Positions 10,429 to 29,339 of a stretch of DNA of 64,000 nt are shown in pieces. The stretch lies in contig CAXXFK010000015.1 in NCBI GenBank assembly GCA_963663965.2, positions 160,001 through 224,000 on the forward strand. The letters run 5' to 3'. The stretch's first letter is position 1; each line of letters begins with the position of its first letter. This DNA comes from Sedimentisphaerales bacterium (lineage in GTDB: Bacteria; Planctomycetota; Phycisphaerae; Sedimentisphaerales; SM23-30). A program made the position numbers and the translations under genes. The notes beneath the pieces were generated by a model, which ran no database searches, had not been told where the DNA came from, and was given only the letters and a program-made list of their open reading frames with translations.

Positions 10429-10447
10429 CCATAGAAAGGGATTCCAC

Positions 10448-11233
10448 ATGAATATGATTAATAAAAACAGACGGGGGTTTACTCTGATTGAATTACTTGT
10501 TGTTATTTCGATTATCGCTTTATTGATCGCGATATTAATGCCCGCGCTGGGTAAAGCCCGGGAACAAGCCAGGCTGATTACCTGTGTCACCAATGTCAGA
10601 TCGCTTTCCCAGGCCTATGACTTGTATCTGAGTAATTATGATGGCAAATTATTGCCTTACTACGAGGGGGGGGATTTCGCCCGGAAAATCCAGAATTTAT
10701 GGTTGTTGCAATTGCAGAAAATCCAGAAGGATGTCAGTGACAATCGCTTTTGTCCCATGGCAGCCAGGGCGAACCTCACTGTAGATCCTGTCGCAAAATC
10801 TCAATACTACCCGAAACACAAAAAAGAACCCTGGCACTGGCATGGTCTGAATACCGAATATGTCGCCGACGGCAGCTATGGCATGAATGGCTGGATTTAT
10901 GGCCCGAAATACAACGAATCCGATTTGCCGGATCATTACAAAAACAGTTCGGAAATCAAGCCGGCCGCCAATGTGCCGCGTTTTTTTGACTGTATCTGGG
11001 TTGACACCTGGCCTTCGGACAACAATAGCGTCAACAACCTGACATCCGATCCGGGCTTACTGGAAACCGGAAGCTGGGATAGTATGATGGGACGTATCTG
11101 GATTAACCGTCACGCCAAAAAACTCGCCATGTCTTTTTGGGATGGTCACGCCGAAGCGATTCCATTAAACACACTCTGGTCACTGGACTGGCACAAACGG
11201 TTTTACAAACAGCTTGATATTACGCTACCCTGA
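10448..11233 (+). CDS. Prepilin-type N-terminal cleavage/methylation protein (planctomycete pseudopilin, H-X9-DG C-terminus)
   Basis: [32 protein letters not shown]...C; SYGMN; RH...[18 protein letters not shown] upstream. Confidence 0.92.
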
Positions 11234-11683
11234 TTAGTTTAATATATCAGTTCTGGGGATATCCTATACAATAATATTTTACCGTTGCGCTAGGAGATAA
11301 CCAGTTAACGAGTAATATGTTATCTTTCGAGCGATCAGGAATTTTCTTACCCATTGGGTAAAGAAATGTCCGATCGCTCGTAAGCTAAGTTCCTACTTGT
11401 AAGAGACTTATTTCACAACCCGGCGGGCATTATCGTTTGTCAATAGTATATCTCTTTAATCCGATCCTTTAAAAGTAACCACCGTCAACTCAGCGGTTCT
11501 CCAGCTTTTATTGTCCAGAACCTCATGCAGTTCGCCCGGTTTCAGTTCCGGCGTATTATCCGTTCGTTCTACAACTTCAATTGCCTTGGCCCCCTTGTCG
11601 GTAGACTGTATCCGTTCGGTGAAGTACCCGTTGTAAGGTTGGTGGAGGGGTATTATAATTGTTTGGGGTGAGTTTCGACCGTT

Positions 11684-13255: not shown

Positions 13256-13294
13256 GAGTCATATCCTAAGCAAAAATGCTTGAAATTGCAAGTG

Positions 13295-13636
13295 TTATTT
13301 TAGCTTAAAACGTGCTTTTAATGCAGTTTTATGCGGTTTTAAGCCTTTCAGCATCATCGCCAGTTGACGATGATCCACGGCATGATCGGCGCCGGTTGGC
13401 GGGATGGAAAAGGTGCCTTTTTCCAGGCGCTTATACCAGATGGCATAGCCATCTTGATCCCAGTATAAACACTTGATCCGATTGCCGCGTTTATTGCAAA
13501 AGATAAAGATGTGGCCGCTGAGCGGATTCTGGCAGAGAACCGACTCCACCAGAACGGCCAGGGCATCGAAACTCTTTCGCATGTCCGTGGGCGCCTGGCA
13601 AAGATAGATCTTGACGGGGGAGGGCAGATGCCACAT
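13295..13636 (-). CDS. tnpB: IS66 accessory protein TnpB (Orf2; not the RNA-guided TnpB)
   Basis: TDMRKSFDAL, IFCNKR, YWDQDG, KRLEKGTF. Confidence 0.95.
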   Translation of the reverse strand: MWHLPSPVKIYLCQAPTDMRKSFDALAVLVESVLCQNPLSGHIFIFCNKRGNRIKCLYWDQDGYAIWYKRLEKGTFSIPPTGADHAVDHRQLAMMLKGLKPHKTALKARFKLK

Positions 13637-13639
13637 ACG

Positions 13640-13969
13640 CTACCTCCGGCACAAGACGATGACTTTGTCGAGTTGGGCCAGGTCGCACGTTTCCGGCACA
13701 TCGATGGATATCCCCGTGGGCAGATTGATTCTGAGCAGAGAACTCGCACGGGTCCTGACCTCGATAAAGGACGGTGGGCGGGTGGCCGTTTGGGCCGGAA
13801 CGCCAAGATCACCGTCCAGGATCTTTAACTTGCGGGCAAAAGTTGAGATCGCCAGGTGATGCTCCCGGCAGTAATCCGATAGGCTTTGGCCACTGAGTCG
13901 AAATTGATTGATCTCGGCCTGCCAGAATTCCTTGCTGCGAAATAGCCGTCGCTTGCCTGTTCGGCTCAT
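13640..13969 (-). CDS. tnpA: IS66 accessory protein TnpA (HTH)
   Basis: FWQAEINQFRLSGQSLSDYCREHHL; first gene inside the IS; RBS AGGAG. Confidence 0.85.
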   Translation of the reverse strand: MSRTGKRRLFRSKEFWQAEINQFRLSGQSLSDYCREHHLAISTFARKLKILDGDLGVPAQTATRPPSFIEVRTRASSLLRINLPTGISIDVPETCDLAQLDKVIVLCRR

Positions 13970-14190
13970 AATAGCTCCTGTCCTGATTAGAATATTGAAT
14001 GTCAAATAACCTGGACAGATTTTATCACACCCCCGCTATCCCGCAACGGGGGGTTCGCCGAACGGATACGGTAGACTTGAACTTACCGGAGTAATTTCTT
14101 GAATCAACCCCCGTTAATAGCAAAGGACGACGCATCGCGATCGCACGCACCAGGAATTCACCATGTGGAGGCCTGATAGCCAGTTGAAAA

Positions 14191-14784
14191 TTATCCCGTG
14201 GATCGGAAATCAGCATTTTCCCACCACCGCGCGTCGGGATAGGTCTCCCGCTGCATAATCGACTGGTTATAATCCACTCCCAGCTGGGTTTTCAGATACA
14301 ACACCATCGTCACCGCCCGGAACTTGCCTTCCGAACCATCGTAAGCCGCCGGCTCCTGCCGAAACCGCGGCAAACGCAACTCCGTCTGACAGCCAACCTC
14401 CGCCGCCCACCGATCCAGGATCGCCAGGCAATTCTCCACCTCCAAATCCTGCGATCCCGGCAGCCCCCCGGCGCACAACAGGTTCATCCGGGCGATATCC
14501 ACCCCCGCCAGTTCTTCCGGCCCCATCGCCAGCAACTCACCCAAAGTCCCCGGCTTTTGCCCACCTTGCGATACAACAGTTTTATTCGTTTTCTCAACCG
14601 GCATCACCTCAGAACCAGCCACCACCCCCAGCGTATCAGCCAGTGCAACCTTGGACCGCCCCTTCGCCTCGCGACCATCAGAATTCACCGCGACAGTCCC
14701 CACAACCCCAATCACACAGCCGGCAAGAAATATCCCTATCGCCTTCACGCCCCATACAGCTTGCTTAGTTATCATTTTTCCCAT
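14191..14784 (-). pseudogene. 3'-truncated copy of the SirB1/transglutaminase-like gene at 18132-19151
   Basis: 14227-14730 is near-identical DNA to 18621-19124; it breaks off at YPDAR, before the putative catalytic Cys/His. Confidence 0.85.
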
Positions 14785-14789
14785 AGCTC

Positions 14790-15821
14790 TTATTCCGCCG
14801 CCTGCCACACTTTAATATCATATTTCGCAAACAACGGCTCCAGGACCCTTTCATACTCACGGACCTCCCTGGGAATCTGTTCTTCTTTCAGTTTCCATTC
14901 CTCTCGAATATATCCCGTACTGCCAAACCGGGGAATAGGCGGCACCTCCGGCCCCTGGATCAGCTTCTCCGCGCGAGCCAGGTAAAAGCCATTCCCAATC
15001 TCCACCACCATCTTCTTAAACCCATTGCCATGATAAAAGATATACTCCTCATGATAATACGGACCGGACCGGTCCAGATACGGTTCAGGGTTCAAATCCT
15101 CCTTCGTGATCCGCCGGATAACGCTTTCCGGCCGGGCCTGTTGAATCTCATCCTGAATTTTCAGATACGCCGCTATCGGCACCCGGCGACACCCAAATCG
15201 GTAAGGTGAAAATTCCTCTTCATCTTTGGCAAATTGGATACTATAGTGCCAATCCATCTTGATGTCTTGTACTGGATCTTTTACCGCTAACAACTGCCGG
15301 GCATTCTCTTCATTTACCTCCCAGTCAAAATAGATATAATCCCTGAAATTATTTTCTAACAGATAGATGCGAAAAGGTGTCTTTATCCATTCTCTTTCGT
15401 GTGTTTCATTATGAATTCCCCATTCATGATATTGAGAACCATAATATATGTGATCTTTTGAACGTCGTTTCAAAAAATCATATTTATCTAACAAATAATT
15501 TCGATCGATTATATGGTTTTCAGGATAATACTGATTTACATACTCCGTATAATTTATAAATTCTTTATCGCGAATAACACATTGACTAAAATCCTTTTCA
15601 AATGCCTTCCAGATCAAGATCTCTTTGTTTATCTCACCCAGTTTATCCGGATGAATACCTATACAAATTTCATCAGTTTTATCATATTCACTTAAAGTCT
15701 CTTTGATCGCCACGATATCATGGCCACAATAATGACATCCCAGCATAAAAATTACTATCACGGCGTTAATAGGATAATATGCTTTTCTCATAGTATCTCC
15801 GGCAAAATACCTCATAATCAT
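14790..15821 (-). CDS. Exported protein/lipoprotein, putative immunity protein for 15818-16879; paralog of 19204-20211
   Basis: 4-bp overlap with the toxin stop; hydrophobic N-terminus with MLGC; shares EILIWK, DYIxFDW, YHxEYxFY, GNGF, LIQGP with its paralog. Confidence 0.7.
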   Translation of the reverse strand: MIMRYFAGDTMRKAYYPINAVIVIFMLGCHYCGHDIVAIKETLSEYDKTDEICIGIHPDKLGEINKEILIWKAFEKDFSQCVIRDKEFINYTEYVNQYYPENHIIDRNYLLDKYDFLKRRSKDHIYYGSQYHEWGIHNETHEREWIKTPFRIYLLENNFRDYIYFDWEVNEENARQLLAVKDPVQDIKMDWHYSIQFAKDEEEFSPYRFGCRRVPIAAYLKIQDEIQQARPESVIRRITKEDLNPEPYLDRSGPYYHEEYIFYHGNGFKKMVVEIGNGFYLARAEKLIQGPEVPPIPRFGSTGYIREEWKLKEEQIPREVREYERVLEPLFAKYDIKVWQAAE

Positions 15822-16879
15822 TTTTTGCTTCTGGCATGAAAGACTTTTTCAGCAATTTGAGCCCAATCCAAAAAATCGTTAAATTCAATCCAGATATGAG
15901 TGTTGCTGCTATAGGCCGAACCAATAGTCTGACTGCCAACCACCTTTTCGAAGGGAACATAATAGTTCCAGTTATCTATCAAACTATGCTGTAATTCCTC
16001 AGCAGAAAGAATTTTTTTTGAAGGAAATCCAAAATACGAATTTTCTCCAACTTTTATTGCATTTTCATGCCGGGCTGATCCTAAACTTTGTGGATATTTA
16101 CTTATTCCAGTTATAACAGTTGGCCCATAGGGACCATTCCAATTATTTATATAGGGACCGTTAGTAAAGCGTATCCAATTCCCAATCACCATACTATCAA
16201 AATTCCTGTCATACTCTATGAACGGCAAAGCCTCTCCCTTGAATGTAACATTGTATTCGGCCGGCTTCAAAGTCCCGATAACGGCATTAGCCATAATAAA
16301 ATAAGCCGCGTCCCAACAATCCGCCTGCAGTCTATTATTCGGATTGCCAAAATATCTTTTAATCATTACATCACTCGCACCGTAACGTTTTTGCACTCCC
16401 AGCGAATTAAAGCTCCCATGAAAACCATAGGCCCCCGCCACCACATTCGAACGAAGCAGGTTTTCATAGTACCTGAAATAATACTCAAGATTATAAATGG
16501 TCCCTTCAGGTACTTCATCCTTGATTTCCAATCCCGGTACCTTTTGTACAATATTTCTGACTTGCGAATAGAATTGCCCCATTTCGCCCGGTAACAGTTT
16601 CCACAATCCGCTCCAGGTATCGCGACACTCAGCTTGCACCAAACCCTTATACGGCTTCGATTCCCAGGGTTTTCCATAAACCTTCCACAAACCCGCCGGA
16701 TCAACCGCTAGCACCGGTTGGCTTCCCACATATTCATACCCGTTCATCCCATCCGTATATTCCACCGGATCCAGGCTCAGCCACCGCCCCTGCTTCGCGT
16801 CATACATCCCATAGCCCGCCTGTCCGGCCAATCCAATCCAGATCATCATAACAGCAAAGATCGCTTTGGGCTTATCCAT
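15818..16879 (-). CDS. Signal peptide + Rhs-associated core motif + Tgl-like transglutaminase toxin domain ('mini-Rhs')
   Basis: RBS GAGGTG; signal peptide ending AGYG; MYDAKQGRWLSLDP...YEYV...VDPAGL; DCWDAA...GNWIRFTN...HENAIKVG. Confidence 0.8.
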   Translation of the reverse strand: MDKPKAIFAVMMIWIGLAGQAGYGMYDAKQGRWLSLDPVEYTDGMNGYEYVGSQPVLAVDPAGLWKVYGKPWESKPYKGLVQAECRDTWSGLWKLLPGEMGQFYSQVRNIVQKVPGLEIKDEVPEGTIYNLEYYFRYYENLLRSNVVAGAYGFHGSFNSLGVQKRYGASDVMIKRYFGNPNNRLQADCWDAAYFIMANAVIGTLKPAEYNVTFKGEALPFIEYDRNFDSMVIGNWIRFTNGPYINNWNGPYGPTVITGISKYPQSLGSARHENAIKVGENSYFGFPSKKILSAEELQHSLIDNWNYYVPFEKVVGSQTIGSAYSSNTHIWIEFNDFLDWAQIAEKVFHARSKK

Positions 16880-16975
16880 CTGCTCACCTCTCCGCTTCGG
16901 GCGGATTTATCACCTTTATTCGTTTAGGTGTTTTGTTAAATCGAATAGGTTTGCACAATACTCTAAACTCAAACA

Positions 16976-17221
16976 TCACAATAAACATTCAACATGATTA
17001 AAGAGGATCAAGGCCAGGCATATTCCAATTAAAATAGCGTTAATAATACCTTCTCTTTTCGAATATCTGCCTTTTTTCTGGAATATCAATAATATAATTC
17101 CCATCAGATAAAAACAATCGCCAATCAATTCGAATTTATCTTGCACTATTAATGAAAATACAATCCCTAAAAACAAGAGTATCAAAATTAGGATGGTATT
17201 ATTGCGCCTTTTTAACGACAT
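16976..17221 (-). CDS. Small multi-TM protein, putative immunity for 17199-18119
   Basis: 81 aa, three hydrophobic segments, AT-rich, overlaps the toxin 3' end, RBS GGGGA. Confidence 0.6.
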   Translation of the reverse strand: MSLKRRNNTILILILLFLGIVFSLIVQDKFELIGDCFYLMGIILLIFQKKGRYSKREGIINAILIGICLALILFNHVECLL

Positions 17222-18119
17222 TAAGTATTCCCCAATTAAAACCAGCAGCTTCAAATCCATTGCCCAACCAATAAAAACCATTTTTTGAAACCGTATCAGA
17301 CCAGGGTGGATTCGCTTGGGCAGCATTACAAATTTTTAAAATAAGAATACCCAATTGATGATCTGGAATATCTAATGGGATTATTGTGTCTGAATTGTCA
17401 CCTTGATTTTTTGAGACGAGCCATACTCCTTTTAGTGCATTGCCCCATGGAAGAGAGAACTTACCTCCTTTACCACCCCAGCCATGTCCACCTCCCATAA
17501 TACCGTACAATTCTGTAGGAGATATATTACTAATATTGGAGGATGGCCATGGCCTTACATAATAATCATAGAATGGGGCATAAAAACCTTTTTGGCTTAA
17601 TAATTCAATAGCTTTTCGCCATGTACCAAGATATAAATAATGTGCTTGGGTATTCATGTGTCCCAATGCGACAACAAATGTGTTAGGGACTGAAAAACGC
17701 CTGGTTTCTTTGAGTGCTTGACTTGAACTTGGCGGAAGCGGTTTTCCATCTAAAGCAACCAGCCATCTTCTAAAATACCTTTCATCTAATAATATTTTTT
17801 TGGATAAACTATCAATTGTATCTCCGCATTCCCCTATGGCGTTAGCTGTTTTTTTATATTGCCGAATTACTTTCCACTCTAATCCAAACATATCTTTTTC
17901 ACTGCTAGGCCTCCCCCCTACATACTCATACAAATTCCCACCATCCGCATACTGCCCCGTCGGCCCAAACGCATTCGTCTCATCGCCCACCACCGTCCCC
18001 ACCGGATCCAGGCTCAGCCACCGCCCCTCTTTCGGATCATACATCCCATAGCCCGTCAGACAGAAAGCTCCCATCCAGATCAGGCCCACAACCCATCGGT
18101 AACACCCCAGTTTAGTCAT
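17199..18119 (-). CDS. Signal peptide + Rhs-associated core motif + variable C-terminal domain (possible His-Cys caspase-like peptidase)
   Basis: Signal peptide ending TGYG; MYDPKEGRWLSLDP...NLYEYV...DMFGL; GGGHG...LILKICN. Confidence 0.75.
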   Translation of the reverse strand: MTKLGCYRWVVGLIWMGAFCLTGYGMYDPKEGRWLSLDPVGTVVGDETNAFGPTGQYADGGNLYEYVGGRPSSEKDMFGLEWKVIRQYKKTANAIGECGDTIDSLSKKILLDERYFRRWLVALDGKPLPPSSSQALKETRRFSVPNTFVVALGHMNTQAHYLYLGTWRKAIELLSQKGFYAPFYDYYVRPWPSSNISNISPTELYGIMGGGHGWGGKGGKFSLPWGNALKGVWLVSKNQGDNSDTIIPLDIPDHQLGILILKICNAAQANPPWSDTVSKNGFYWLGNGFEAAGFNWGILNVVKKAQ

Positions 18120-18131
18120 CAGATGATCCTC

Positions 18132-19151
18132 TCATTGAGTTGGCGTAACAGTCTTCTGATAAATCGCACGATAGTTTCCCAGTTCCTTTTCCAGCGCCCG
18201 GTTCAAATGGGCCAGGGTATCCAGCGAATCCGGCATCAACCGATAGGCCCAGGCGTACATGGCCTGGGCTTCCGTCACCCGTCCGGCATCGAACAGACAA
18301 TGCCCGCGTGTCTGCAAGAACACACCCAGTTCCTCGGACGGGCTCAACGATCTCAGATACGGATTGGCCCGCATATCCGCATCGCTGATCCGGCCCGGCC
18401 AGCTGCGATAATACGCATCCGGATGCGAATCACAGCCCGGACAGCAGGCCTCCACATTAAAAACCTCACTCCCCTCCTCCCAGCGGAAAAACACATGCTG
18501 GCGGGTCGCAACCAGTTTGAGCGGATACCCCAGCCGCCGGCCCACCGCCACACACAAAGTCGGAATCGACAGACAGCCGCCCTGCTTCTGATCGCCCAGA
18601 CAGCCATGAATAAACACATCCCGCGCGTCGGGATAGGTCTCCCGCTGCATAATCGCCTGGTTATAATCCACTCCCAGCTGGGTTTTCAGATACAACACCA
18701 TCGTCACCGCCCGGAACTTGCCTTCCGAACCATCGTAAGCCGCCGGCTCCTGCCGAAACCGCGGCAAACGCAACTCCGTCTGACAGCCAACCTCCGCCGC
18801 CCACCGATCCAGGATCGCCAGGCAACTCTCCACCTCCAAATCCTGTGATCCCGGCAACCCTCCGGCGCACAACAGGTTCATCCGGGCGATATCCACCCCC
18901 GCCAGTTCTTCCGGCCCCATCGCCAGCAACTCACCCAAAGTCCCCGGCTTTTGCTCACCTTGCGATACAACAGTTTTATTCGTTTTCTCAACCGGCATCA
19001 CCTCAGAACCAGCCACCATCCCCAGCGTATCAGCCAGTACAACCTCGGTCCGCCCCTTCGCCTCGCGCCCATCAGAATTCACCGCGACAGTCCCCACAAC
19101 CCCAATCACACAGCCGGCAAGAAAGATTACTACACCCACTTTCAACTTCAT
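18132..19151 (-). CDS. Membrane-anchored SirB1/Transglut_core2-like protein with C-terminal TPR
   Basis: N-terminal TM; FIHGCLG...GGCLSIPTLCVAVGRRLGYPLKLV...HVFFRWE; TPR-like RGHCLFDAGRVTEAQAMY. Confidence 0.75.
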   Translation of the reverse strand: MKLKVGVVIFLAGCVIGVVGTVAVNSDGREAKGRTEVVLADTLGMVAGSEVMPVEKTNKTVVSQGEQKPGTLGELLAMGPEELAGVDIARMNLLCAGGLPGSQDLEVESCLAILDRWAAEVGCQTELRLPRFRQEPAAYDGSEGKFRAVTMVLYLKTQLGVDYNQAIMQRETYPDARDVFIHGCLGDQKQGGCLSIPTLCVAVGRRLGYPLKLVATRQHVFFRWEEGSEVFNVEACCPGCDSHPDAYYRSWPGRISDADMRANPYLRSLSPSEELGVFLQTRGHCLFDAGRVTEAQAMYAWAYRLMPDSLDTLAHLNRALEKELGNYRAIYQKTVTPTQ

Positions 19152-19203
19152 GCTATCCCCTGATTTTTTGATAATTTAATCTGTTTTCACCTTAACAGGC
19201 ATC

Positions 19204-20211
19204 TTACAAACCGTATTTATCAAATAAACTTTTCACATAATTTTCAAATTCACTGACCTCAGCCGGAATTTGGTCTTTCTCCACCCGATACGCCCCAACA
19301 TCACTAAGCTGGGTTCCATGGCGCTGTTTTCGTTCTTCAAGTTCTTCCGCGCTCCATTCAAATTGTGGTCCTTGTATCAGCAGTTCAACCCGGCCCATAA
19401 AAAAACCATTACCCATCTTGATCACCATCCGCCAGAAACTGTTTCGATAATAGAAAACATACTCTTTATGATACCATTTCTTATCGGTACGAATGCTGGG
19501 TTCAGGCAAAATCGTATCGGTCCCTGCCATTTTTCTGACACATTGCGGCCGGCTGGCTCGAATTTCTTGTTGAATCGCTGGATACTTGTCAAGAGGAATT
19601 ATTCGATAATCCAGTTGATAACCATCCACCGCATCAATTTCGTCCAAAAACGCCAGGTTTCCAGCCACCAATTGACGATCCAGTTCATGCATTTCCTTTA
19701 GCAGTTCTTCGGCATGATCCCTGATCAGATCCCAGTCAAAATGGATATAATCAAAAAATTGATTGCCCATCTCCCGGCAACCCAGGTCGTTTTGAATAAC
19801 CCATTTGATTCGTGGTTCCGGCTTATTCGTTTTAGCGCTATAGCGGTTTTGATATCGCTTTTCAAAAATCTGACAATCCGGCCGCAATTTTAAAAACCGA
19901 TGCTGATCCAGAAATGGATAAGATTGCACCTGACTCACGACCTCAAGACCCTGTTTGGCTACCAAGAAGCTGTTTGGATCGCCATAATTAACAAATCCCT
20001 GACAAAGAAACGGATCATTTGATTCCATTTCAAATATCTTCCATATGAGAATTTCATGATCGATATCCCAGACTTTGGCGGCATCAATATAAACACAAAC
20101 AGCGATTGATTCCTGGCATTCATCAAATATTTCACAATTCGTGTGTATTGCCTGAATCATCGATCCCATGCAACACAAGATTACAATTACTATTTTATCC
20201 ATACTAATCAC
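19204..20211 (-). CDS. Exported protein, putative immunity for 20233-21264; paralog of 14790-15821
   Basis: Signal-like N-terminus; directly downstream of the toxin; motifs shared with its paralog. Confidence 0.7.
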   Translation of the reverse strand: MISMDKIVIVILCCMGSMIQAIHTNCEIFDECQESIAVCVYIDAAKVWDIDHEILIWKIFEMESNDPFLCQGFVNYGDPNSFLVAKQGLEVVSQVQSYPFLDQHRFLKLRPDCQIFEKRYQNRYSAKTNKPEPRIKWVIQNDLGCREMGNQFFDYIHFDWDLIRDHAEELLKEMHELDRQLVAGNLAFLDEIDAVDGYQLDYRIIPLDKYPAIQQEIRASRPQCVRKMAGTDTILPEPSIRTDKKWYHKEYVFYYRNSFWRMVIKMGNGFFMGRVELLIQGPQFEWSAEELEERKQRHGTQLSDVGAYRVEKDQIPAEVSEFENYVKSLFDKYGL

Positions 20212-20232
20212 ACATAAAAATACTAGATTCCA

Positions 20233-21264
20233 TTAACTTCTATTTCTTATATTAAATATTCTTTTTGCAATTCTCGCCCAGTCTAAAAAACGATTAAATC
20301 CAATCATAACATGATTTTTATTGTACGGATCATATGGTCGTTTCAAATCAGGCCCCCGACCATTATTTACAACATTATTGATCCAGGCATTAATCATCTC
20401 AGTCCTCCATCCATCCCAGCTTAAATTTCCAATTGGAAATCCCCAATACAAATCTTCACCAACTTTAATGGCATTTTCGTGTCGAAACGCGTCTGGATTT
20501 GGTGACCATTTTGGATTTATGTATAGATCTTGGCCGTTTATTATTGGCCCATTTTGAAATCGTACCCAATTACCAACTGGCATATTGCTAAAGCTCTTAG
20601 GATATTCAACAAATGGGATCGCGCCAATTTGATTAAATTCACCTGGATGTAATGTATCTATCACCGCTTTGTCCATAACATATTGAGCGGCATCCCAGCA
20701 ATCCAGCGATTTACCCGTTGCCGGGTCTTCATCAAAGTAAGCGTTCACAAAATCTTCTTTGGCCGAATAGCGCGCAGTTAAATGACTGGCACCAAATTTT
20801 CCCATCTCAAAACTCACGGTTGCTTTCACCACATTACCACGCAATAATTGCTCGTAAAACATCAGATACGACTTTAGGTTGACACGGATCCCATTAGGCA
20901 CGCTGTCAATATCGACCCCGGCTATTTGTTTCGTAGCATATGCCAGTGCATGATATAATCCACCATCCAACCCCGGCAATAAACTCAATAACTCGCTATA
21001 AGTATCGCCACATTCTGATATGATAAATCCTTCATAGGTCAATGACTTCCAGGCTCCCTGAGCCTTCCACAGGCCCGCCGGATCAACCGCTTGCGCCGGT
21101 TGGCTTCCCACATATTCATACCCGTTCATCCCATCCGTATATTCCACCGGATCCAGACTCAGCCACCGCCCCTGCTTCGCGTCATACATGCCATAGCCCA
21201 CCTGGACAAGTGATAGAATCCAGCCAACCGCCATCACCCCAATCAGCCTTTTTGTATTAATCAT
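20233..21264 (-). CDS. Signal peptide + Rhs-associated core motif + Tgl-like transglutaminase toxin domain ('mini-Rhs')
   Basis: RBS GGAGG; signal peptide ending VGYG; MYDAKQGRWLSLDP...VDPAGL; LMFYEQLLRGNVV, DCWDAAQ, VGNWVRFQN, FRHENAIKVGEDLYWG. Confidence 0.8.
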   Translation of the reverse strand: MINTKRLIGVMAVGWILSLVQVGYGMYDAKQGRWLSLDPVEYTDGMNGYEYVGSQPAQAVDPAGLWKAQGAWKSLTYEGFIISECGDTYSELLSLLPGLDGGLYHALAYATKQIAGVDIDSVPNGIRVNLKSYLMFYEQLLRGNVVKATVSFEMGKFGASHLTARYSAKEDFVNAYFDEDPATGKSLDCWDAAQYVMDKAVIDTLHPGEFNQIGAIPFVEYPKSFSNMPVGNWVRFQNGPIINGQDLYINPKWSPNPDAFRHENAIKVGEDLYWGFPIGNLSWDGWRTEMINAWINNVVNNGRGPDLKRPYDPYNKNHVMIGFNRFLDWARIAKRIFNIRNRS

Positions 21265-21317
21265 AAAACCTCCAATTTGATATAATTATTTCTTCCAGTT
21301 TAAGTCAGCATTTAGAT

Positions 21318-21390
21318 TCAGCGGTTCATCGATTCCATTGCCATAGACGAACTCACGCCGGGTTGTTCCTTGCTCATCGGTTTCCATTAT
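21318..21390 (-). pseudogene. Rhs core remnant
   Basis: Translates as IMETDEQGTTRREFVYGNGIDEPL, matching the Rhs cores at 24.8 and 28.8 kb. Confidence 0.8.
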
Positions 21391-22585
21391 TATCCTCAAA
21401 GATAATGGGATACCCAACTTCTGTATCCCATTCAATCACATACTGATATAAAGGTTGCTGATCCCAGGTAATTAGCTTATATTTCGGCCCGTTATTTTTC
21501 AGTGCCGAATCAGTTTCAGTTTTAATGTCTATTTCCAGCCTCTGCTTTTTCAGAAGCTCAAAGCTGCGTTCTCTGAATTCTGACTCAGAATTACGATCCC
21601 ATTCTGTCACAATGGTCAATCCAGGTAATTTTTGTCTTAACGCCTCAATACCTGTTAAAGTTACCTGAGTATTGAATACTGTCAGATATTTTAAATTTTT
21701 CATATACGCCAGAAAGCTTAATCCTTTATCCGAAATCGCAGTCGAATGCAATTCCAGATACTCTAAATCTGGCTCTCGATAAAAATATAGATCACGATCC
21801 GTAATATTAGTATAGGACAATAGTAGCTTCTTTAAATGAAGCGGATTGAGTTCCGCAATATTGTAATCTCTGAAATAATTTCCCCGCAAATCCAGAATTT
21901 GCAGCTCCGACATATCTGCAATATCACACCATCCCGAACCTGTGATCTTAGTCCAGGAAGCATTCAGATAACGCAAGTTTTTGAAATTCGCTACCACACT
22001 GAGATAATCATCGTTACTGGTATACGGCAATCCCAGATAGGTCAGATTGGATAATCCCGAAAGTTCAGCGAAGTTTTCCCGGGTCATACTGGCAAAATAT
22101 AAGTCCAAATACTTCAAATCGACAAAGTCGGAAATCTCCTTGACTGTGGGAACATAAGTTTGGTTTCTAAAATCATAACAAAAGGATCTCAACTCGATTT
22201 GACCGATATGTGTCAATGTCTGTCTATCGCCGGAACGGCCATTGCTAATCGCTAAACCTTCCACATACAATTCGGATGGTTTAGCTGTTGAACGAGAGCC
22301 GAACTGGACTAGCAAGTGGTCAATCCCTGCCAAATCTTCTAAACCTTTCCTATCTCTGGAATTAAGCCCCTCATATAACTTACAATTCAGGTCACTTTTA
22401 TAATAGAGATACCCTCCTTGAGGTACGGTATAAACACGACGAAGCATACCCCTAATATTTTCGGAATATAACTCCCTCTGACAGCGAAGCCAATGATCTT
22501 CTGTAATCCCTTCACCACCCATCAAAGCGTTAGAAAGCAAAAACAGGTTAAAATACAACAGGTATATCCTTTTTAATGAACACAT
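21374..22585 (-). CDS. Exported leucine-rich-repeat protein (orphan immunity candidate)
   Basis: Repeated LxxLxL (LKYLDL, LTYLGL, LRYLNA, LQILDL, LEYLEL); VTLTGIEALRQKLPGLTI cap; signal-like N-terminus. Confidence 0.8.
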   Translation of the reverse strand: MCSLKRIYLLYFNLFLLSNALMGGEGITEDHWLRCQRELYSENIRGMLRRVYTVPQGGYLYYKSDLNCKLYEGLNSRDRKGLEDLAGIDHLLVQFGSRSTAKPSELYVEGLAISNGRSGDRQTLTHIGQIELRSFCYDFRNQTYVPTVKEISDFVDLKYLDLYFASMTRENFAELSGLSNLTYLGLPYTSNDDYLSVVANFKNLRYLNASWTKITGSGWCDIADMSELQILDLRGNYFRDYNIAELNPLHLKKLLLSYTNITDRDLYFYREPDLEYLELHSTAISDKGLSFLAYMKNLKYLTVFNTQVTLTGIEALRQKLPGLTIVTEWDRNSESEFRERSFELLKKQRLEIDIKTETDSALKNNGPKYKLITWDQQPLYQYVIEWDTEVGYPIIFEDNNGNR

Positions 22586-22845
22586 ATTATTCACCTTAAT
22601 ATAATACCACACTTGGATCATATTCACCAGATACCCATGGGCTTATTGAATTCGATGCATAATCACTTACATTAAATGGATACCAAACATTTGGATCCCA
22701 AGCATGTAAATAGTCGGGTCAGTAACGGCTGTTCCGGCCCAATTGGGCGTCGCCCATGCGGTCTCATTTAAATGATCCATCATTTCCTGATCCATCCTGT
22801 CAATCCTGTGATCCTGTCTAGAATATTTTTCTTTAAAATCTCGAC

Positions 22846-22946
22846 GATCTCCATCACCACCTACCGGCGGTCATTTTAATAATACTGCGTCACAGTATCC
22901 ATCACCTCGCCCGGCACCCGCATCGCGATGTAGCGTCCCAGCGCGT
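22846..22946 (-). pseudogene. Degenerate Rhs core remnant
   Basis: Mutated copy of the DNA encoding ALGRRIEMRVPGEVVDTVTRYYFNDRWQVVME, now with an in-frame stop. Confidence 0.8.
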
Positions 22947-22999
22947 TTTAATAACACTTTACTATCCTTACTCAATGTTTATCCTGCTATCAGATCCCA

Positions 23000-23458
23000 T
23001 CATTCCGTTGACACAAAACGCTTATAGAGTATAAGACTATATTTTTCATATAAATCCTTTGCAATAAATTTGTGCTTGCCTTTAATTAGAAAAACCTGCT
23101 CATTTCCCTTATCGTAAATTGTACCACTGCGTTCTTTAAGATCGTTAAAATCCTTACCATACCCAATAAAATAATCATCCAACGCATCAGTTTGAATGAC
23201 ACAATCCATATTTTGACCATATCGTAATAGATAATCTTTATTTGAAACCGAGTCTGGTTTTACCAATTGCAAATAACCTTTTAAAATCAGATCATTCTTG
23301 CTTGTAGGCATTGCATTATTCTGGTCAATATAACAAGAAAGCCAGGTACATATTTTGTACAAATCACATCCCGTCTTATATCTTATATAAGCAACATCGA
23401 AAGCAATATACAATATAATTATAACCGCAATTATAATTAGTCTTTTTTTCATGGACAC
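23000..23458 (-). CDS. N-terminally membrane-anchored protein, putative immunity for 23449-24930
   Basis: Overlaps the toxin stop; AT-rich; single TM. Confidence 0.65.
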   Translation of the reverse strand: MSMKKRLIIIAVIIILYIAFDVAYIRYKTGCDLYKICTWLSCYIDQNNAMPTSKNDLILKGYLQLVKPDSVSNKDYLLRYGQNMDCVIQTDALDDYFIGYGKDFNDLKERSGTIYDKGNEQVFLIKGKHKFIAKDLYEKYSLILYKRFVSTE

Positions 23459-24930
23459 TCCTTCAACATTACCTCAATAATCTGCCTGGCATATCTTCCA
23501 CATGCATGTTGTGCAGTATATATCCAAGGCTGATCTACAAGCCCCTTTTTTAATTTGTCTGCGGCATCGCAACTTATTGCTCCGGCAAATTCCCATTTCG
23601 CACCTAAATCCGAATTGTGTGTAATTTCTGTTTGAACAATGCTAAATACAAATCCGGCCTGCTTAAATCCAAACAACTCACCTGGCATTACATGAATATC
23701 CCATGATTTCTCAATGCCATGCTTGAAGCATTTTACTCTGGCAACTTTATGAGCCCATGTGGATTCAAGGGTGACAAAATAAACTCCGCACCAACAACAT
23801 GTACCTTTATGAGCGCCATAGACAGTACTTGATGAATTTCCATATTTACATTGACATGCGGCCATCGCATCTTGTTTTTCTCCTCTTGGCACTGAAACCT
23901 GTTTACAATCACTTATCGTCTTATAGTGCTGTATCGGGTCCCCATGCATATAAGTAGTATGCGTATAGACCTTTTTACCATGCTCTGGACCTTTGATCTT
24001 GCAACAGGCATAACTATCTTCACTTAATCCAGTTAAATCACCATTCATCATCGGTCCACTCTTTACATATTCATACAAATTCACTCCATCCGTATACTGC
24101 CTCAGCGGACTGAAACCATTCATAGTGTCCCCCGGCACTACCCCCAGCGGATCCACACTCAACCACCGCCCGGTCCGATAATCATAATACCGATGACGGT
24201 TAATCTGAATCAGCTTCGCCCCGCCGTCAAGGATATCTAATCGCCGACCGGTGAAGTAGTACGGATTACCGATAACCGATCCTACCGCCGAAGCCGTCAA
24301 TTCCGAAGTCGGCCCCGCCACACTCATCGCCGGCATCTCCAATCCTCCCAGCGACAGTCCTTCAGCATCAATCACCGTATTGGGATCCAGCAGCATCCCC
24401 AACGAATCGTTCGGATCGTAAACCGGGTCATACTCCGGCAACTCCGTCGCATACAATACCGGCGCAAACTGCCAGTCCCACGGCTCCATCCGCCACAGCG
24501 ACTCCTGCGCCAACTCATCCTCCGTCACCCCCGCCCAGGCCGCCTCATCATACCCCCCATACGCCGGCATAACCGCCCCGGCGATCAGATCATCCCGCAC
24601 CCACACACTCGGCTTGCCATAGACATCATACTCGTACCGCTCGGCCACCTCTGCCGATTCATCTAATAAGGCAACGGTGCTATTCAGGTGGTCCTGAACA
24701 TAGTAATACAACGGCTCACCGGCCGTCATCCCATCGATCAGGATCAGCGGCTCATCGATACCATTGCCATAGACGAACTCACGCCGGGTCGCCCCTTCTT
24801 CATCCGTCTCCATCACCACCTGCCAGCGGTCATTGAAGTAATAGCGCGTCACAGTATCCACCACCTCGCCCGGCACCCGCATCTCGATGCGGCGTCCCTG
24901 GGCATCGCTAGGCTCAAAAAACAACAACAA
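23449..24930 (-). CDS. Rhs orphan cassette with Cys-rich C-terminal toxin (possible permuted papain-like fold)
   Basis: YYVQDHLNST, YEYDVYG, NPYYFTGR, RYYDYRTGRWLSVDP, DLTGL; CT has H...H...YTAQHACGRYA; no convincing start. Confidence 0.8.
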   Translation of the reverse strand: MLLFFEPSDAQGRRIEMRVPGEVVDTVTRYYFNDRWQVVMETDEEGATRREFVYGNGIDEPLILIDGMTAGEPLYYYVQDHLNSTVALLDESAEVAERYEYDVYGKPSVWVRDDLIAGAVMPAYGGYDEAAWAGVTEDELAQESLWRMEPWDWQFAPVLYATELPEYDPVYDPNDSLGMLLDPNTVIDAEGLSLGGLEMPAMSVAGPTSELTASAVGSVIGNPYYFTGRRLDILDGGAKLIQINRHRYYDYRTGRWLSVDPLGVVPGDTMNGFSPLRQYTDGVNLYEYVKSGPMMNGDLTGLSEDSYACCKIKGPEHGKKVYTHTTYMHGDPIQHYKTISDCKQVSVPRGEKQDAMAACQCKYGNSSSTVYGAHKGTCCWCGVYFVTLESTWAHKVARVKCFKHGIEKSWDIHVMPGELFGFKQAGFVFSIVQTEITHNSDLGAKWEFAGAISCDAADKLKKGLVDQPWIYTAQHACGRYARQIIEVMLKECP

Positions 24931-24958
24931 TCATAAAATCAGTACACATAGTATCATT

Positions 24959-25453
24959 TTATGGATTTTCCTCATCTATTGCCCACGATTTATTAATAGC
25001 ATATTTCTGCACAATATCATCCTTCAATCCCTTGTCATCTTTTCCATTGTAGCCATAACTCATAAGACAATACTGACCATCTTTCTCCTTGATAATTATG
25101 ATTGGTTTATTGTAATCATCAAGCAAATCATTGTTTGTGTCAATATATTCATCTAAATAACTCAAATTTGCAGCAACTACAATATCGTCATTTTCTACAG
25201 ATTCACCCCATTCTGCAGATTTGCCCCATTCTATCACCGAACGGGTAGTTATGGGAAATTTTTCATTATTTTTTGCATATATTTCTACGATATTAGAAAA
25301 AAAATCCATTCTTTGCTTTGTTCTAGATATAGCCTCAGCCTTCCCTTGTCGTATACAATCTCGCTCATTTAAAAAATTGACGACAAGTACAAACACAACA
25401 ACAACGGCCACAAGTGCCGCTAAGATATATTTATATTTTTTATTTAAACACAT
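24959..25453 (-). CDS. Putative immunity protein with GspG C-terminal-like motif
   Basis: N-terminal TM; DDYNKPI...YCLMSYGYNGKDD...DDI; overlaps the toxin stop. Confidence 0.6.
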   Translation of the reverse strand: MCLNKKYKYILAALVAVVVVFVLVVNFLNERDCIRQGKAEAISRTKQRMDFFSNIVEIYAKNNEKFPITTRSVIEWGKSAEWGESVENDDIVVAANLSYLDEYIDTNNDLLDDYNKPIIIIKEKDGQYCLMSYGYNGKDDKGLKDDIVQKYAINKSWAIDEENP

Positions 25454-26669
25454 CGGGGATTCGTCCTTCGGTTCCGAACTCATATATTACGTTACTAGGA
25501 TGACAAACAAATTTATAGCAAGAATTGCCCTTATATTTTAATAAGCTGTTATATTTTTCCGCTAATTCACGACAACTTAATTTAAAACCAAATATTTTTT
25601 TAAGCTCTTCAAATGGTCGTTCACCTAATGTAAAATTATATCCCAACAAGCCCTGTTCCGACATTGTTAACAGGCTTTTTGGCAAACCCTTAAGAGCTTC
25701 ACTTGAAACAACCCAAGCGCCATTATATTGTACGCCTTCTCTAGCTGTACTCCATACTAATTTCCAGAATCCTTTGATTTTTCTTGTATTAGAAAAATTA
25801 TTTTCAACATTATAAATATATATCTCCCGCTCTAAAAGTCTAAGATCTCTTAATGGGGTTAAAATTTGTTCTGAAGCATATGCTATGCCTTCATTTTTAA
25901 TAATATCTCTTAAATTATCCTTATCAGGATAAATTCCATTAAGATATAAATATGCATGAACTAACTCATGTAATGCGGTAGCATTAGTAGAACCTTCGGG
26001 CAAATATACAGTTTCGGATTCATCATCAAAATGAGCAATAGATGTAATTATAGGTCGTCTAATTCCACCATGATTGAATAGTACATTAGCAGTATTTGTT
26101 AAATCAATCTCAAGCATTTTTTTAAAACCTGTTAAAGGATAAAAAGCAGTAGAAACTTCATTTCCGTTTACATTAACTGAAGAATAATAAGAAATAAGAC
26201 TTTGAATATGATTTAATAGGAAGTTTTCTGCCGCTTTTGGGGTGTCTCTCACATAATTCCCTCCTAGCCCTCCATAAGGATCCCAATAATCTGTACCCAA
26301 AGGATCATAATATTCAACAGGATTATCCCCAACATACTCCAACAAATTCCCCCCATCTGCATACTGTCCCAGCGGACTAAAAGCATTCTCATAATCCCCC
26401 GGCACCACGCCCAGCGGATCCACACTCAGCCACCGCCCGGTACGATAATCATAATGCCGATGCCGGTTAATCTGAATCAGTTTCGCCCCGCCGTCAAGGA
26501 TATCCAGCCGCCGCCCGGTGAAGTAGTACGGATTGCCGATAACCGACCCCACCGCCGAAGCCGTCAATTCCGAAGTCGGCCCCGCCACACTCATCGCCAG
26601 CATCTCCCCAGCGGCGAGCGTCAGCGACCCGATTTCGTCCGCCGACAGTCTCTGCGACAATCCATCCAC
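25440..26669 (-). CDS. Rhs orphan cassette with HExxH zincin metallopeptidase-like toxin
   Basis: GRWLSVDPLG...DPLGT; ALHELVHAY...NEGIAY. Confidence 0.8.
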   Translation of the reverse strand: MDGLSQRLSADEIGSLTLAAGEMLAMSVAGPTSELTASAVGSVIGNPYYFTGRRLDILDGGAKLIQINRHRHYDYRTGRWLSVDPLGVVPGDYENAFSPLGQYADGGNLLEYVGDNPVEYYDPLGTDYWDPYGGLGGNYVRDTPKAAENFLLNHIQSLISYYSSVNVNGNEVSTAFYPLTGFKKMLEIDLTNTANVLFNHGGIRRPIITSIAHFDDESETVYLPEGSTNATALHELVHAYLYLNGIYPDKDNLRDIIKNEGIAYASEQILTPLRDLRLLEREIYIYNVENNFSNTRKIKGFWKLVWSTAREGVQYNGAWVVSSEALKGLPKSLLTMSEQGLLGYNFTLGERPFEELKKIFGFKLSCRELAEKYNSLLKYKGNSCYKFVCHPSNVIYEFGTEGRIPDVFK

Positions 26670-26730
26670 AGCCGTATTAGATAGGATAACAGGATTTACA
26701 GGATAATTTATAATCCAATAGCCCTCCTTC

Positions 26731-27267
26731 TTATCTCGTAAGTAGAGTATCGAGCCGTTTTACCACATTATCCGTTTTCCAATCGTCCGACATCCAAAAC
26801 TTAATAAATGTATCATAAGGGACTGGAGCATACCGGTGAAGTACGCCCGTATCCAAACTTGTGACCTCAATTAATAAGCCAATTCTATCATTTTCTTTTG
26901 AAATAAAATACAAATATTCATAATCAAGACCAGATATGCCTCTACCACAAGCATAGATCGCACTAATTGTTATTATCGGCTTTCTGTCAATTAAATCAGG
27001 TTTAACTGCATTAGGGTCTGGAGGATCAAACACAATATCAGATTCGTCAAAACCTTCAATTCTATACTTTTTTTGATATCCAAGCATTTCAAGTTTCTGA
27101 CAAACCTTTTCAACCTGATCACCAATTACTAAATTGGGGGCCGGGTTATAGTTAGTCCGGCATAGCAAGGAAGACTCGTCACACCACATTTTGGCGGCTG
27201 TTACCCTGTCACACCCTGACAAATAGACACACACAATAAACAACGCGATCAAAATTAGTTTTCTCAT
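26731..27267 (-). CDS. Lipoprotein, putative immunity for 27264-29339
   Basis: Lipobox LSGC; 4-bp overlap with the toxin stop. Confidence 0.75.
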   Translation of the reverse strand: MRKLILIALFIVCVYLSGCDRVTAAKMWCDESSLLCRTNYNPAPNLVIGDQVEKVCQKLEMLGYQKKYRIEGFDESDIVFDPPDPNAVKPDLIDRKPIITISAIYACGRGISGLDYEYLYFISKENDRIGLLIEVTSLDTGVLHRYAPVPYDTFIKFWMSDDWKTDNVVKRLDTLLTR

Positions 27268-29339
27268 TTATTAATCTCCACCACTAACCATGGAAATGCC
27301 TCGTATGGGTATCGTAACGGACTTATTATCTTGCCATCTGGACTTACGCATCGTTTTACAATTTCATGTTTAGACTCATCATAATAAATATTGCATGAAT
27401 ATCGATGTTCTTCATTAGTCCAGGCAAATGGCGCGCTTTTTTCCCATGGATCTAACCGCACTGAGCATGGACCAGTAAGTAATGGTCGTTCACCAACAGA
27501 TACTGTTGCCCAATTGTGTCGAATAGTCATACTTTTATTAATTGTTTCAGTTGGATCATAGCCTGCTCTCCATACTTTAAAACAGCTATCCGAATCCCTG
27601 CTGGCTTTGATGGCATTGTAGGTTAAGGTCTGCCAGTAGAAGCAGGGCCAACCACAATGTAAATTGCCATATTCAGACCCCAAGTAACTGTTATCTTGTA
27701 TTCCAAAATTAATCATCGCAAATGACTGAGGATAATTCGCCATATTATCCCACATCTTGATATAATCGTTCGCAATCTGCCGGGCCTCTCTGAGGCATTT
27801 GAAAAGATCGCATTTGCAATCAGAATTATCTCTGCACTTTTTGTTTCGACATACTTTGGCCAATTTTTCATAAACTAACGATGCCGATTCAGTTAACGGC
27901 CCGTATAATGGAGGTTCTGCTCTTGTTTGAGCGTCTGGATAAATTACTTTTGGATAAATCAGACCGGTATCAGGGTCAACATAATCTGTTGCGGAATCAA
28001 TAACATTCGTCATCTTTCCCATCGGATCTGTATTTATCATCACCTGTGAATAAGCATATTGATAAAGATTCATCCCATCGACATATCCAGCAGGATCCAC
28101 ACTCAGCCACCGCCCGGTACGATAATCATAATACCGATGCCGGTTAATCTGAATCAGCTTCGCCCCGCCGTCAAGGATATCCAGCCGTCGCCCGGTGAAG
28201 GAATACGGATTGCCGACAACCGACCCCACCGCCGAAGCCGTCAACTCCGAAGTCGGCCCCGCCACACTCATCGCCAGCATCTCCAATCCTCCTGGTATCC
28301 CCGTATCAGCGGCGATCAATCCCGTACTATTGGGATCACTCGGCCAGCCCATCATGTCGCTGCCGCTCCATGCTTCATTCGGATCCAGCGCCGCCAACAG
28401 CAGTATCGGCGTATTATCACCCACCGCCATTTCTCCGGATGTTTCCTCCATGACCTTCATGTCCCTCGTGGTGAATAACGGCTGTTCCAGCCACCCGGCC
28501 GCCGCGTCGGCGTAGAAGGTCAACGAATCCATCGGCCTCACCGTCGGCGCCATGATCGAGTCGCTGACGCTCCCCGCTGCTACCCAGACACTCGGCTTGC
28601 CATACACATCATACTCATACCGCTCGGCCACGTCCGCCGCTTCATCCAACAGCACAACGGTACTATTCAGGTGGTCCTGAACATAGTAATACAACGGCTC
28701 TCCGGCCGTCATCCCATCGATCAGGATAAGCGGCTCATCGATCCCGTTGCCATAGACGAACTCACGCCGGGTCGCCCCTTCTTCATCCGTCTCCATCACC
28801 ACCTGCCAGCGGTCATTGAAGTAATAGCGCGTCACAGTATCCACCACCTCGCCCGGCACCCGCATCTCGATGCGGCGTCCCAGCGCGTCATAGTCATAAG
28901 CGACCACATCCGTATCACTCCCTTCATCATACACCCCATCGCTGTCCAGGTCAATATAAACCCGCTTCAGCCGGTTCTCATAGTCCCAGACATAACTATA
29001 GCCTTCTTCATCAGTTACGACATTCCCCGCCGCGTCATAGCCCAGCTGCACATCATAACTGCCGACCGCGTCATACTGGTTCGTCAGCGCATCGACGGCA
29101 TAAGTCTCGACCGCCCCGGTTTTCAGGGCCACCTGCGTCCGGTTCCCCAGGGTATCGTAATCGAAAACTTCCGACTGACCCTGGGCCAGCCGCTCGATCG
29201 TCGCCTCAGACAGAACCTGGTTATAGATCCGCACATCGTCGATCACCCCATCAAAACCACGGCCGCCGCCGATCCGGGCCAATGAAATGACCTGAATGAA
29301 CCGACTTTCAGCCGCCAGACTATTGGCAATTACCATCAC
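27264..29339 (-). CDS. 5'-truncated Rhs/YD-repeat protein with LamG remnant and papain-like (C-H-D) C-terminal toxin
   Basis: FDGVIDDVRIYNQVLS then YD repeats, DPAGYVDGMNLYQY, DPMG; CT WPCFYWQ...HNW...LDPW. Confidence 0.85.
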   Translation of the reverse strand: MMVIANSLAAESRFIQVISLARIGGGRGFDGVIDDVRIYNQVLSEATIERLAQGQSEVFDYDTLGNRTQVALKTGAVETYAVDALTNQYDAVGSYDVQLGYDAAGNVVTDEEGYSYVWDYENRLKRVYIDLDSDGVYDEGSDTDVVAYDYDALGRRIEMRVPGEVVDTVTRYYFNDRWQVVMETDEEGATRREFVYGNGIDEPLILIDGMTAGEPLYYYVQDHLNSTVVLLDEAADVAERYEYDVYGKPSVWVAAGSVSDSIMAPTVRPMDSLTFYADAAAGWLEQPLFTTRDMKVMEETSGEMAVGDNTPILLLAALDPNEAWSGSDMMGWPSDPNSTGLIAADTGIPGGLEMLAMSVAGPTSELTASAVGSVVGNPYSFTGRRLDILDGGAKLIQINRHRYYDYRTGRWLSVDPAGYVDGMNLYQYAYSQVMINTDPMGKMTNVIDSATDYVDPDTGLIYPKVIYPDAQTRAEPPLYGPLTESASLVYEKLAKVCRNKKCRDNSDCKCDLFKCLREARQIANDYIKMWDNMANYPQSFAMINFGIQDNSYLGSEYGNLHCGWPCFYWQTLTYNAIKASRDSDSCFKVWRAGYDPTETINKSMTIRHNWATVSVGERPLLTGPCSVRLDPWEKSAPFAWTNEEHRYSCNIYYDESKHEIVKRCVSPDGKIISPLRYPYEAFPWLVVEINK

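Follow-up and report, generated by a model that had tools for sequence, protein, structure and literature searches.

Shell-less Rhs-derived, toxin-like proteins with leaders predicted to end at the autoprotease arginine register, and a neighbouring transglutaminase-like enzyme as their candidate maturation partner

The 64,000-nucleotide stretch analysed here (the window; contig CAXXFK010000015.1, positions 160,001 to 224,000, of the Sedimentisphaerales bacterium assembly GCA_963663965.2) carries three short genes, mini-Rhs 1 (20233..21264), mini-Rhs 2 (17199..18119) and mini-Rhs 3 (15818..16879), all on the minus strand, which would encode shell-less polymorphic toxins derived from Rhs proteins. 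A gene for a transglutaminase-like partner enzyme with a Cys-His-Glu triad (18132..19151, minus strand), absent from an earlier note on this DNA, ends 12 bp from the start of mini-Rhs 2. We propose that the core tip of these toxins is probably an N-terminal substrate tag for this dedicated neighbouring enzyme, so that the two genes would form a toxin-maturation system. We favour this reading because one N-terminus is reached by two routes, its second residue is aromatic, toxin and enzyme are matched in compartment, and the triad of the enzyme faces the tag in a modelled complex.

The leader end and the arginine register

The mini-Rhs proteins have 306-353 residues, with the core beginning at residue 26. 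Mini-Rhs 1 consists of a 25-residue Sec-type leader, an Rhs core tip from M26 to about L65 (with D38 and D61) and a candidate TGL-like C-terminal domain; mini-Rhs 2 has a leader, a core tip with a 15-residue insert (D38, D76) and an unrelated C-terminal domain; mini-Rhs 3 is a paralogue of mini-Rhs 1 (45.5% identity; D37, D60). The Rhs-associated core profile TIGR03696 scores 41.6 bits on mini-Rhs 1 and 40.1 and 24.9 bits on the other two (cut-off 32.5), over profile positions 30-76 only, and Pfam and TIGR profiles gave no RHS_repeat or YD match, and thus no YD-repeat shell, in the three proteins. The genes are not assembly errors, since public contigs, probably from the source sample, show zero differing letters at positions 13921-22784 where these are covered.

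In all three genes a hydrophobic leader ends in G-Y-G directly before M-Y-D-x3-G-R-W-L-S-L-D-P, and its final Gly precedes the first Asp by 13 residues. The codons concerned are 21190..21192 (Gly25 of mini-Rhs 1, the predicted -1 residue of the leader), 18045..18047 (Gly25 of mini-Rhs 2) and 16808..16810 (Gly24 of mini-Rhs 3), all on the minus strand. That the predicted signal-peptide end falls in three genes on the register of the conserved Rhs autoprotease arginine had been claimed in the earlier note, and both the translations and a six-frame scan of the genome bear this out; two further Gly-register genes lie on contig C12, and the residue is Gly in all five such genes of the genome. The Rhs/TcC numbering used in the note (R650/D663/D686 in YenC2) agrees with that quoted in the available text of bioRxiv 10.1101/2021.02.03.429655, and a module profile made from the five G|M genes, and biased toward that form, places the mini-Rhs Gly opposite YenC2 residue 650 (4igl_B residues 647-690 against profile positions 22-66). 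The same spacing is given for BiTLP, in which R2103 lies 13 residues before D2116 (available text of PMC13018210). Asp-dependent cleavage has been demonstrated for Tse5 and Rhs1, and RhsA has a C-terminal aspartyl autoprotease (PMC8765631), as far as the available text of these reports goes.

Three canonical orphan Rhs fragments form an array upstream (23449..29339, minus strand), each followed by a small gene and sharing core DNA with the mini genes. The note had read these cores as R-Y-Y-D; the Arg is present in all three, and the motif is RYYD in two and RHYD in one. Canonical cores in the fetched loci likewise keep the Arg (40/40).

Among homologues, taken as the best 150 representatives from 1.84 billion sequences (128 leader-plus-module, 21 other, 1 dropped), the Arg position of the 128 signal-type representatives holds Gly in 60, Ala in 55, Arg in 11, Gln in 1 and Ser in 1, and the position two residues earlier is mostly small (A69, S21, T9, G6, V6, C5). 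Cleavage sites were deduced from such -3/-1 statistics, a heuristic, by which a small-residue site falls at the Arg register in 116 of 117 Arg-less homologues, against 6, 0 and 61 of 117 at neighbouring registers. The Arg-keepers place theirs one residue earlier in 11/11. The note had named homologues that retain the Arg and vary freely at the junction as the case that would speak against it; Arg-keepers do exist, eleven of them, and their junction is fixed. An alternative cleavage site lies three residues upstream in mini-Rhs 3. In metagenome DNA, a pattern requiring Gly or Ala at the register and leaving the upstream sequence unconstrained found 61 sites in 55 loci, 59 of which have a hydrophobic leader, the other 2 being cut by contig ends. 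The mature chain is predicted from these sequence statistics to start on the Arg-register residue or just past it.

Four leader types occur beside the enzyme, across three phyla. In type I the leader is followed by Arg; in type II, which includes the window genes, it ends at the Arg register. Type III (Pirellulaceae, Prochloron and genome G370) has no leader and carries its initiator Met at +1, preceded by purine-rich ribosome-binding sites in the five genes inspected. In type IV, seen at 6 loci from 4 genomes and with long inserts at two of them, the leader is followed by R/E-Y-x-D-G; the hairpin and the first Asp are absent and the second DPxG is present in 6/6. The register is more than chance and is under selection: the signal-less relatives reach the same N-terminus via the initiator Met, so that the free amine at this point seems to matter. 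Of 26 toxins of types II-IV, 24 have an aromatic second residue in the mature chain, and this holds also for the type with a different starting register.

The neighbouring transglutaminase-like enzyme

The partner enzyme was modelled with a predicted local distance difference test (pLDDT) score of 89.5 as an N-terminal membrane helix, a transglutaminase-like domain with C193, H219 and E234, and TPR-like helices. PF13369 (Transglut_core2) matches it at 19.6 bits (gathering cut-off 23.5; E 7e-4), and many of its 944 homologues at E<=1e-8 are annotated as PF13369, as is 70% of the nearest Atlas cluster. The best fold match of the model (VIA) is menin (Z 15.2, root-mean-square deviation 4.2 over 225 residues), followed by TglA (10.7) and the streptococcal transglutaminase 4xz7 (10.4); Foldseek returned zero matches under E 0.001. 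Cys193, His219 and Glu/Asp234 are each conserved in 125/125 aligned sequences at 23-62% identity. The model is that of a transglutaminase-like or papain-like fold with a Cys-His-Asp/Glu triad, and the protein would be catalytically active.

The dedicated subfamily is well separated in score from the generic long-TPR members of PF13369, a family described in 2023 as being of unknown function (available text of PMC10318531). The enzyme occurs at E<=1e-24 in only 2 of the 251 Myxococcota genomes searched, and the viral contigs searched contained no relative of it. A longer exported subfamily (P0273, P0275-P0304; 600-740 residues) has a Pro/Gln-rich tail, one member being named as from Limisphaerales (Verrucomicrobiota). 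An apparent enzyme-toxin fusion, P0272 (one of 34 longer forms; module plus WHH nuclease), was set aside, as its His strand is missing and the gene call appears to be stitched together.

Loci were gathered via the enzyme, four of them having first been met via the toxin. Among the 35 strong loci (>=150 bits), a shell-less module gene lies next downstream in 28, behind a group II intron in 1 and upstream in 3; of the remainder, 2 are at a contig edge and 1 has a truncated enzyme. A module gene is thus found beside the enzyme in 32 of 33 testable strong loci versus 0 of 28 generic homologues, although 20 of these 28 controls have only about 0.6-1.1 kb of downstream sequence and one has 57 bp. 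Weaker Myxococcota loci have it in 5 of 6, the sixth lying at a contig edge; two enzyme fragments have no module gene. The G/A-register pattern occurs in 6 of 401 Planctomycetota genomes, 5 of which are among the 10 genomes with the dedicated enzyme (Fisher p 6e-7 with our own genome left out, related genomes not being independent). Several genomes hold more than one enzyme-toxin pair. In Prochloron, the enzyme gene is interrupted by a group II intron with a reverse transcriptase (L060:7448-9157), and in L073, from a related genome, it is broken and fused to another gene.

Enzyme and toxin also correspond in predicted compartment, a hydrophobic anchor being present on 28 of 31 enzymes beside leader-bearing toxins versus 0 of 6 beside leaderless (type III) ones. 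In a quick tree with long branches, leader type tracks enzyme clade: the enzymes of type IV group in a single clade (100), and four of type III in a second one (100). In a nested clade of three Arg-keepers with an extended leader (L061, L063, L069), E234 is replaced by Asp, a single event, and the Arg-keepers of Myxococcota and genome G015 sit among generic members.

A modelled complex between residues 66-330 of the enzyme and residues 26-75 of mini-Rhs 1 had a score of 0.77 (runs 0.77, 0.81, 0.73), versus 0.00 for the best control. Of 157 solved pairs, 116 attain the score mark applied, as do 2 of 215 mismatched ones; these figures are only approximate for the alignments used here. At least 56% of contacts agree between runs, the mini-Rhs partner having a pLDDT of 44-46. 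Confident contacts join mini-Rhs residues 26-39 to the enzyme, including C193, H219 and E234, with G32-L35 running along strand 237-242; the DPxG region was left unplaced. Model memory of a similar complex is unlikely because the best 60 Protein Data Bank sequence matches of the enzyme profile are all TPR-only. The model supports binding of the N-terminal segment at the triad. Two further possibilities were considered and rejected: an Arg supplied in trans by the enzyme (R128 in the interface is variable and the invariant R223 lies outside it), and a conserved Gln as transglutaminase donor (Gln stands at +11 in 111/128, yet is absent from the window genes and type IV).

The resemblance to menin raises the question of whether the partner is an enzyme at all. 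It could be a receptor or chaperone without catalytic activity, similar to menin, to which the toxin is attached by its N-terminus, the module serving as a binding and recombination tag only; human menin is itself probably an inactive scaffold (available text of PMC10318531), and the sharing of core DNA between mini and canonical genes, together with the swapping of C-terminal domains, fits a recombination role. We regard this as unlikely, as Cys, His and Glu/Asp remain invariant across the aligned sequences despite their divergence, and all three lie in the modelled interface. A more sceptical view would take the register as the frozen accident of one leader-core fusion and the enzyme as a linked passenger. 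Related genomes do share gene order, and the G-Y-G end of the window leaders resembles the G-Y-R strand of TcC cores; however, four leader types in three phyla, the matching of compartments, the several enzyme-toxin pairs per genome and the modelled complex all speak against it, and we consider such an accident very improbable.

Proposed maturation and its chemistry

We propose the following hypothetical scheme for a tag read by a dedicated enzyme, in which (i) the small gene encodes a shell-less Rhs-derived toxin that is exported by Sec, or made leaderless in the cytoplasm; (ii) the mature chain would start at the core hairpin, presenting a free amine-X-Tyr-Asp, in a segment that would no longer be mainly the Arg/Asp/Asp part of an autoprotease; (iii) this tag would bind within the active-site cleft of the adjacent Cys-His-Glu enzyme through strand addition, the enzyme being membrane-anchored in the compartment of the toxin and acting on the tag; and (iv) the second half of the module (YxDG..DPxG) would be kept at least partly as a crossover zone for swaps of C-terminal domains. 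As to the chemistry, we tentatively prefer a thioester followed by acyl or peptidyl transfer to the new alpha-amine, which would tether the toxin or license it for onward export, over a proteolytic cut of the tagged chain by the enzyme, which we find rather doubtful; with the cut already behind it, a fixed N-terminus would most naturally serve in aminolysis. In its widest form, a conjecture we hold with equal caution, this would be a novel mode of toxin delivery, with shell and autoprotease discarded and the core tip retained as an acceptor tag: a membrane-anchored PF13369 enzyme would covalently acylate or ligate the amine that signal peptidase or initiation leaves free, and one transacylase would serve the export and arming of hundreds of different toxins. 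In metagenome loci L132, L166 and L173, mini-Rhs cassettes lie among type II secretion genes (gspD, gspE, gspF, gspG; Pfam), neighbours that may hint at an exit route or at an insertion hot spot.

The earlier note had offered two consequences of the coincidence between signal peptidase site and Arg register. Of its second branch, a catalytically dead module serving as a docking tag, the docking tag gains support from the findings above, with a dedicated neighbour enzyme that co-occurs with the module, shares its predicted compartment and is modelled as binding this very segment. Its first branch, extended here to the partner, would have the alpha-amine stand in for the Arg in a module that still self-cleaves after the second DPxG, the partner being at most a scaffold in place of the missing shell. 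This is conceivable where both Asp are kept, as they are in types I-III and in all three window genes (DPxG..DPxG), and the attainment of one N-terminus via two routes would suit it; the Arg also matters in canonical cores, autoproteolysis being reduced in BiTLP R2103A (available text of PMC13018210). It is weakened, in turn, by the six type IV toxins that lack the hairpin and first Asp while keeping the second DPxG, which it cannot cover, by the eleven Arg-keepers, by a complex model that assigns the hairpin to the partner instead of to an autoprotease fold, and by the invariant triad of the partner. On structural reasoning without coordinates, the amine is moreover a backbone group, one residue past the Arg and a side-chain length from the position of the guanidinium, and the module alone folds poorly (pLDDT 49-65). 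We judge substitution of the Arg by the amine to have a small chance of being correct.

The second Asp is kept in 119 of 122 parsed signal-type homologues. Asp-Asp spacing exceeds 30 residues (up to at least 82) in 67 of these 122, reflecting inserts, where a spacer of 18-19 residues has been reported for shell-enclosed cores. One type IV and one type II toxin have an identical C-terminal domain, the identity beginning in the second half of the module and running from the DPxG onward. The core DNA of the window mini genes is 75-93% identical among themselves and to the canonical orphans. Since C-terminal domains swap and core DNA is common to mini and canonical genes, recombination can explain part of the Asp conservation.

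If the product of the enzyme were a ligated peptide, the partner might be a peptide ligase that joins mini-toxins to a YD-repeat shell made elsewhere in the cell, a reloading at the protein level. The N-terminus does lie at the junction matching canonical cores, and long Rhs frames occur in most carrier genomes checked. Shells were searched for with PF05593 and TIGR03696, TIGR01643 and PF25023 being too insensitive. By this search, the closed chromosome G401 has the system and no core-bearing frame of more than 630 residues, with one RHS-repeat match; in G046, an 88% complete genome that carries four enzyme loci, there is no RHS-repeat match at all; and no conserved shell gene lies nearby. Ligation to a remote shell therefore has little to recommend it.

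Several observations weigh against a tag for a dedicated enzyme. Genome G050 (91% complete) has the G/A register and no enzyme at E<=0.001; the truncated-enzyme locus, L066, is testable and has no toxin; the two C12 genes are without the enzyme in their 15 kb locus; and the enzyme is visible in only 16 of the 55 short metagenome loci, many of the others lying in arrays or at contig ends. Among 58 loci, no further gene, for instance one for an acyl donor or an exporter, proved to be conserved as a third member. The conservation of both Asp in types I-III is what self-cleavage predicts, and there is no single amine register, the predicted start being shifted upstream by one residue in Arg-keepers and probably by three in L069. 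Generic PF13369 proteins carry the same triad, which may be inherited; the output of the complex model is silent on which mini-Rhs residue touches C193, and the partner fold in it is uncertain; and the tree evidence is limited by long branches.

Relation to known systems and the surrounding locus

The mini-Rhs proteins resemble the YD-repeat toxins of the Rhs/TcC type (YenC2, TccC3, RhsA, Rhs1, Tse5, BiTLP) in their homologous core tip, two DPxG-type motifs, hypervariable C-terminal domain (114 domains among the homologues fall into 84 clusters), putative downstream immunity gene and cassette exchange. They differ in lacking a YD shell, in retaining under half of the core domain, in the absence of the Arg from most members and of the first Asp from one type, in a mature N-terminus predicted at the hairpin, and in the dedicated Cys enzyme next door. 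With orphan rhs-CT/immunity modules (CT, C-terminal) they have in common that the genes are short, start inside the core, lie in arrays and share DNA with canonical cores. Those modules start at variable upstream points and keep the Arg, whereas each mini-Rhs gene comes with a ribosome-binding site of its own, starts with a signal peptide or at an exact initiator Met, and is paired with a conserved partner.

A signal peptide or transmembrane helix, a transglutaminase-like fold and Rhs elements also come together in the Sec-exported toxins with an N-terminal transglutaminase domain described in the available text of Zhang et al. 2012 (PMC3482391). In those toxins it is an inactive, fused domain ahead of an RHS-repeat stalk, whereas the partner described here is encoded by its own gene, has its triad intact and is not accompanied by a stalk. 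The partner shares with Transglut_core2/SirB1-like proteins (PF13369) a weak Pfam match and the same motif order plus TPR, and differs from generic members as a distinct subfamily with a candidate substrate. By analogy only, it may be compared with two other groups of transglutaminase-fold Cys enzymes, the McjB/B2 lasso-peptide leader peptidases (PF13471), which mature a dedicated precursor, and the arylamine N-acetyltransferases (PF00797), which acylate an amine (available text of PMC10318531); these correspond to the two reactions weighed above. The Pfam families differ, and the candidate substrate of the partner is a toxin-like protein of 180-350 residues.

No paper on the pairing of mini-Rhs genes with this enzyme was found in full-text searches, most subscription papers and the supplements of Zhang et al. 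2012 being outside that scope. Of eight toxin homologues, five have no database name, two are called 'hypothetical protein' and one 'uncharacterized protein RhaS with RHS repeats', and a word-index search with the 68-residue module matched the two window paralogues only. This suggests an undescribed variant among the polymorphic toxin systems of Rhs type, whose maturation chemistry may well prove to be new. PF13369 would thereby gain its first candidate substrate, in a reaction of two proteins that can be put to the test; the findings show that Rhs toxins can shed both shell and catalytic Arg, contrary to the standard three-domain model; and they suggest a means by which many variable toxins are deployed in Planctomycetota, Myxococcota and one cyanobacterium. 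Were the enzyme indeed to transfer acyl or peptidyl groups onto a short tag at the N-terminus, this would amount to a new protein-ligation or labelling chemistry.

Within the window, the mini-Rhs products are putative toxins. PF20085 matches mini-Rhs 1 at 24.2 bits (cut-off 23.7; E 2e-5) and gives no match in mini-Rhs 3. The C-terminal domain of mini-Rhs 1 aligns with Tgl 4p8i at E 0.02, the Cys being aligned, but WGFP standing opposite the His of Tgl FAHG; the AlphaFold model of the whole protein is poor (pLDDT 48). Each toxin gene is followed by a putative immunity gene on the minus strand: that of mini-Rhs 1 (19204..20211) is of exported type and 29% identical to that of mini-Rhs 3 (14790..15821), its role being suggested by position and paralogy, and that of mini-Rhs 2 (16976..17221) would encode a small, two-helix membrane protein. 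Paralogous toxin pairs are followed downstream by paralogous genes. A second enzyme copy (14191..14784, minus strand; 96% identity over 169 residues) is truncated before the catalytic Cys and adjoins an IS66 element (tnpA/B/C, 11684-14005) that closes the array.

Directly after the module, all three mini genes contain a W-K..E-C-G/R-D-T..L stretch (17700-17870, 20900-21060, 16500-16690), also present in L124, which we take to be reminiscent of a LysM-like domain. Leader-bearing leucine-rich-repeat proteins adjoin both mini-Rhs clusters of the genome (window 21374-22627; L001:5877-7283 and 9966-11480) and are possibly orphan immunity genes. Very long Rhs frames elsewhere in the genome (6482 and 2129 residues, on contigs C21 and C6) have a core type unrelated to the window array. 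Short Rhs-derived DNA relics at 21318-21399 and 22717-22947 recur on contigs C20, C25, C30 and C40 and mark cassette boundaries.

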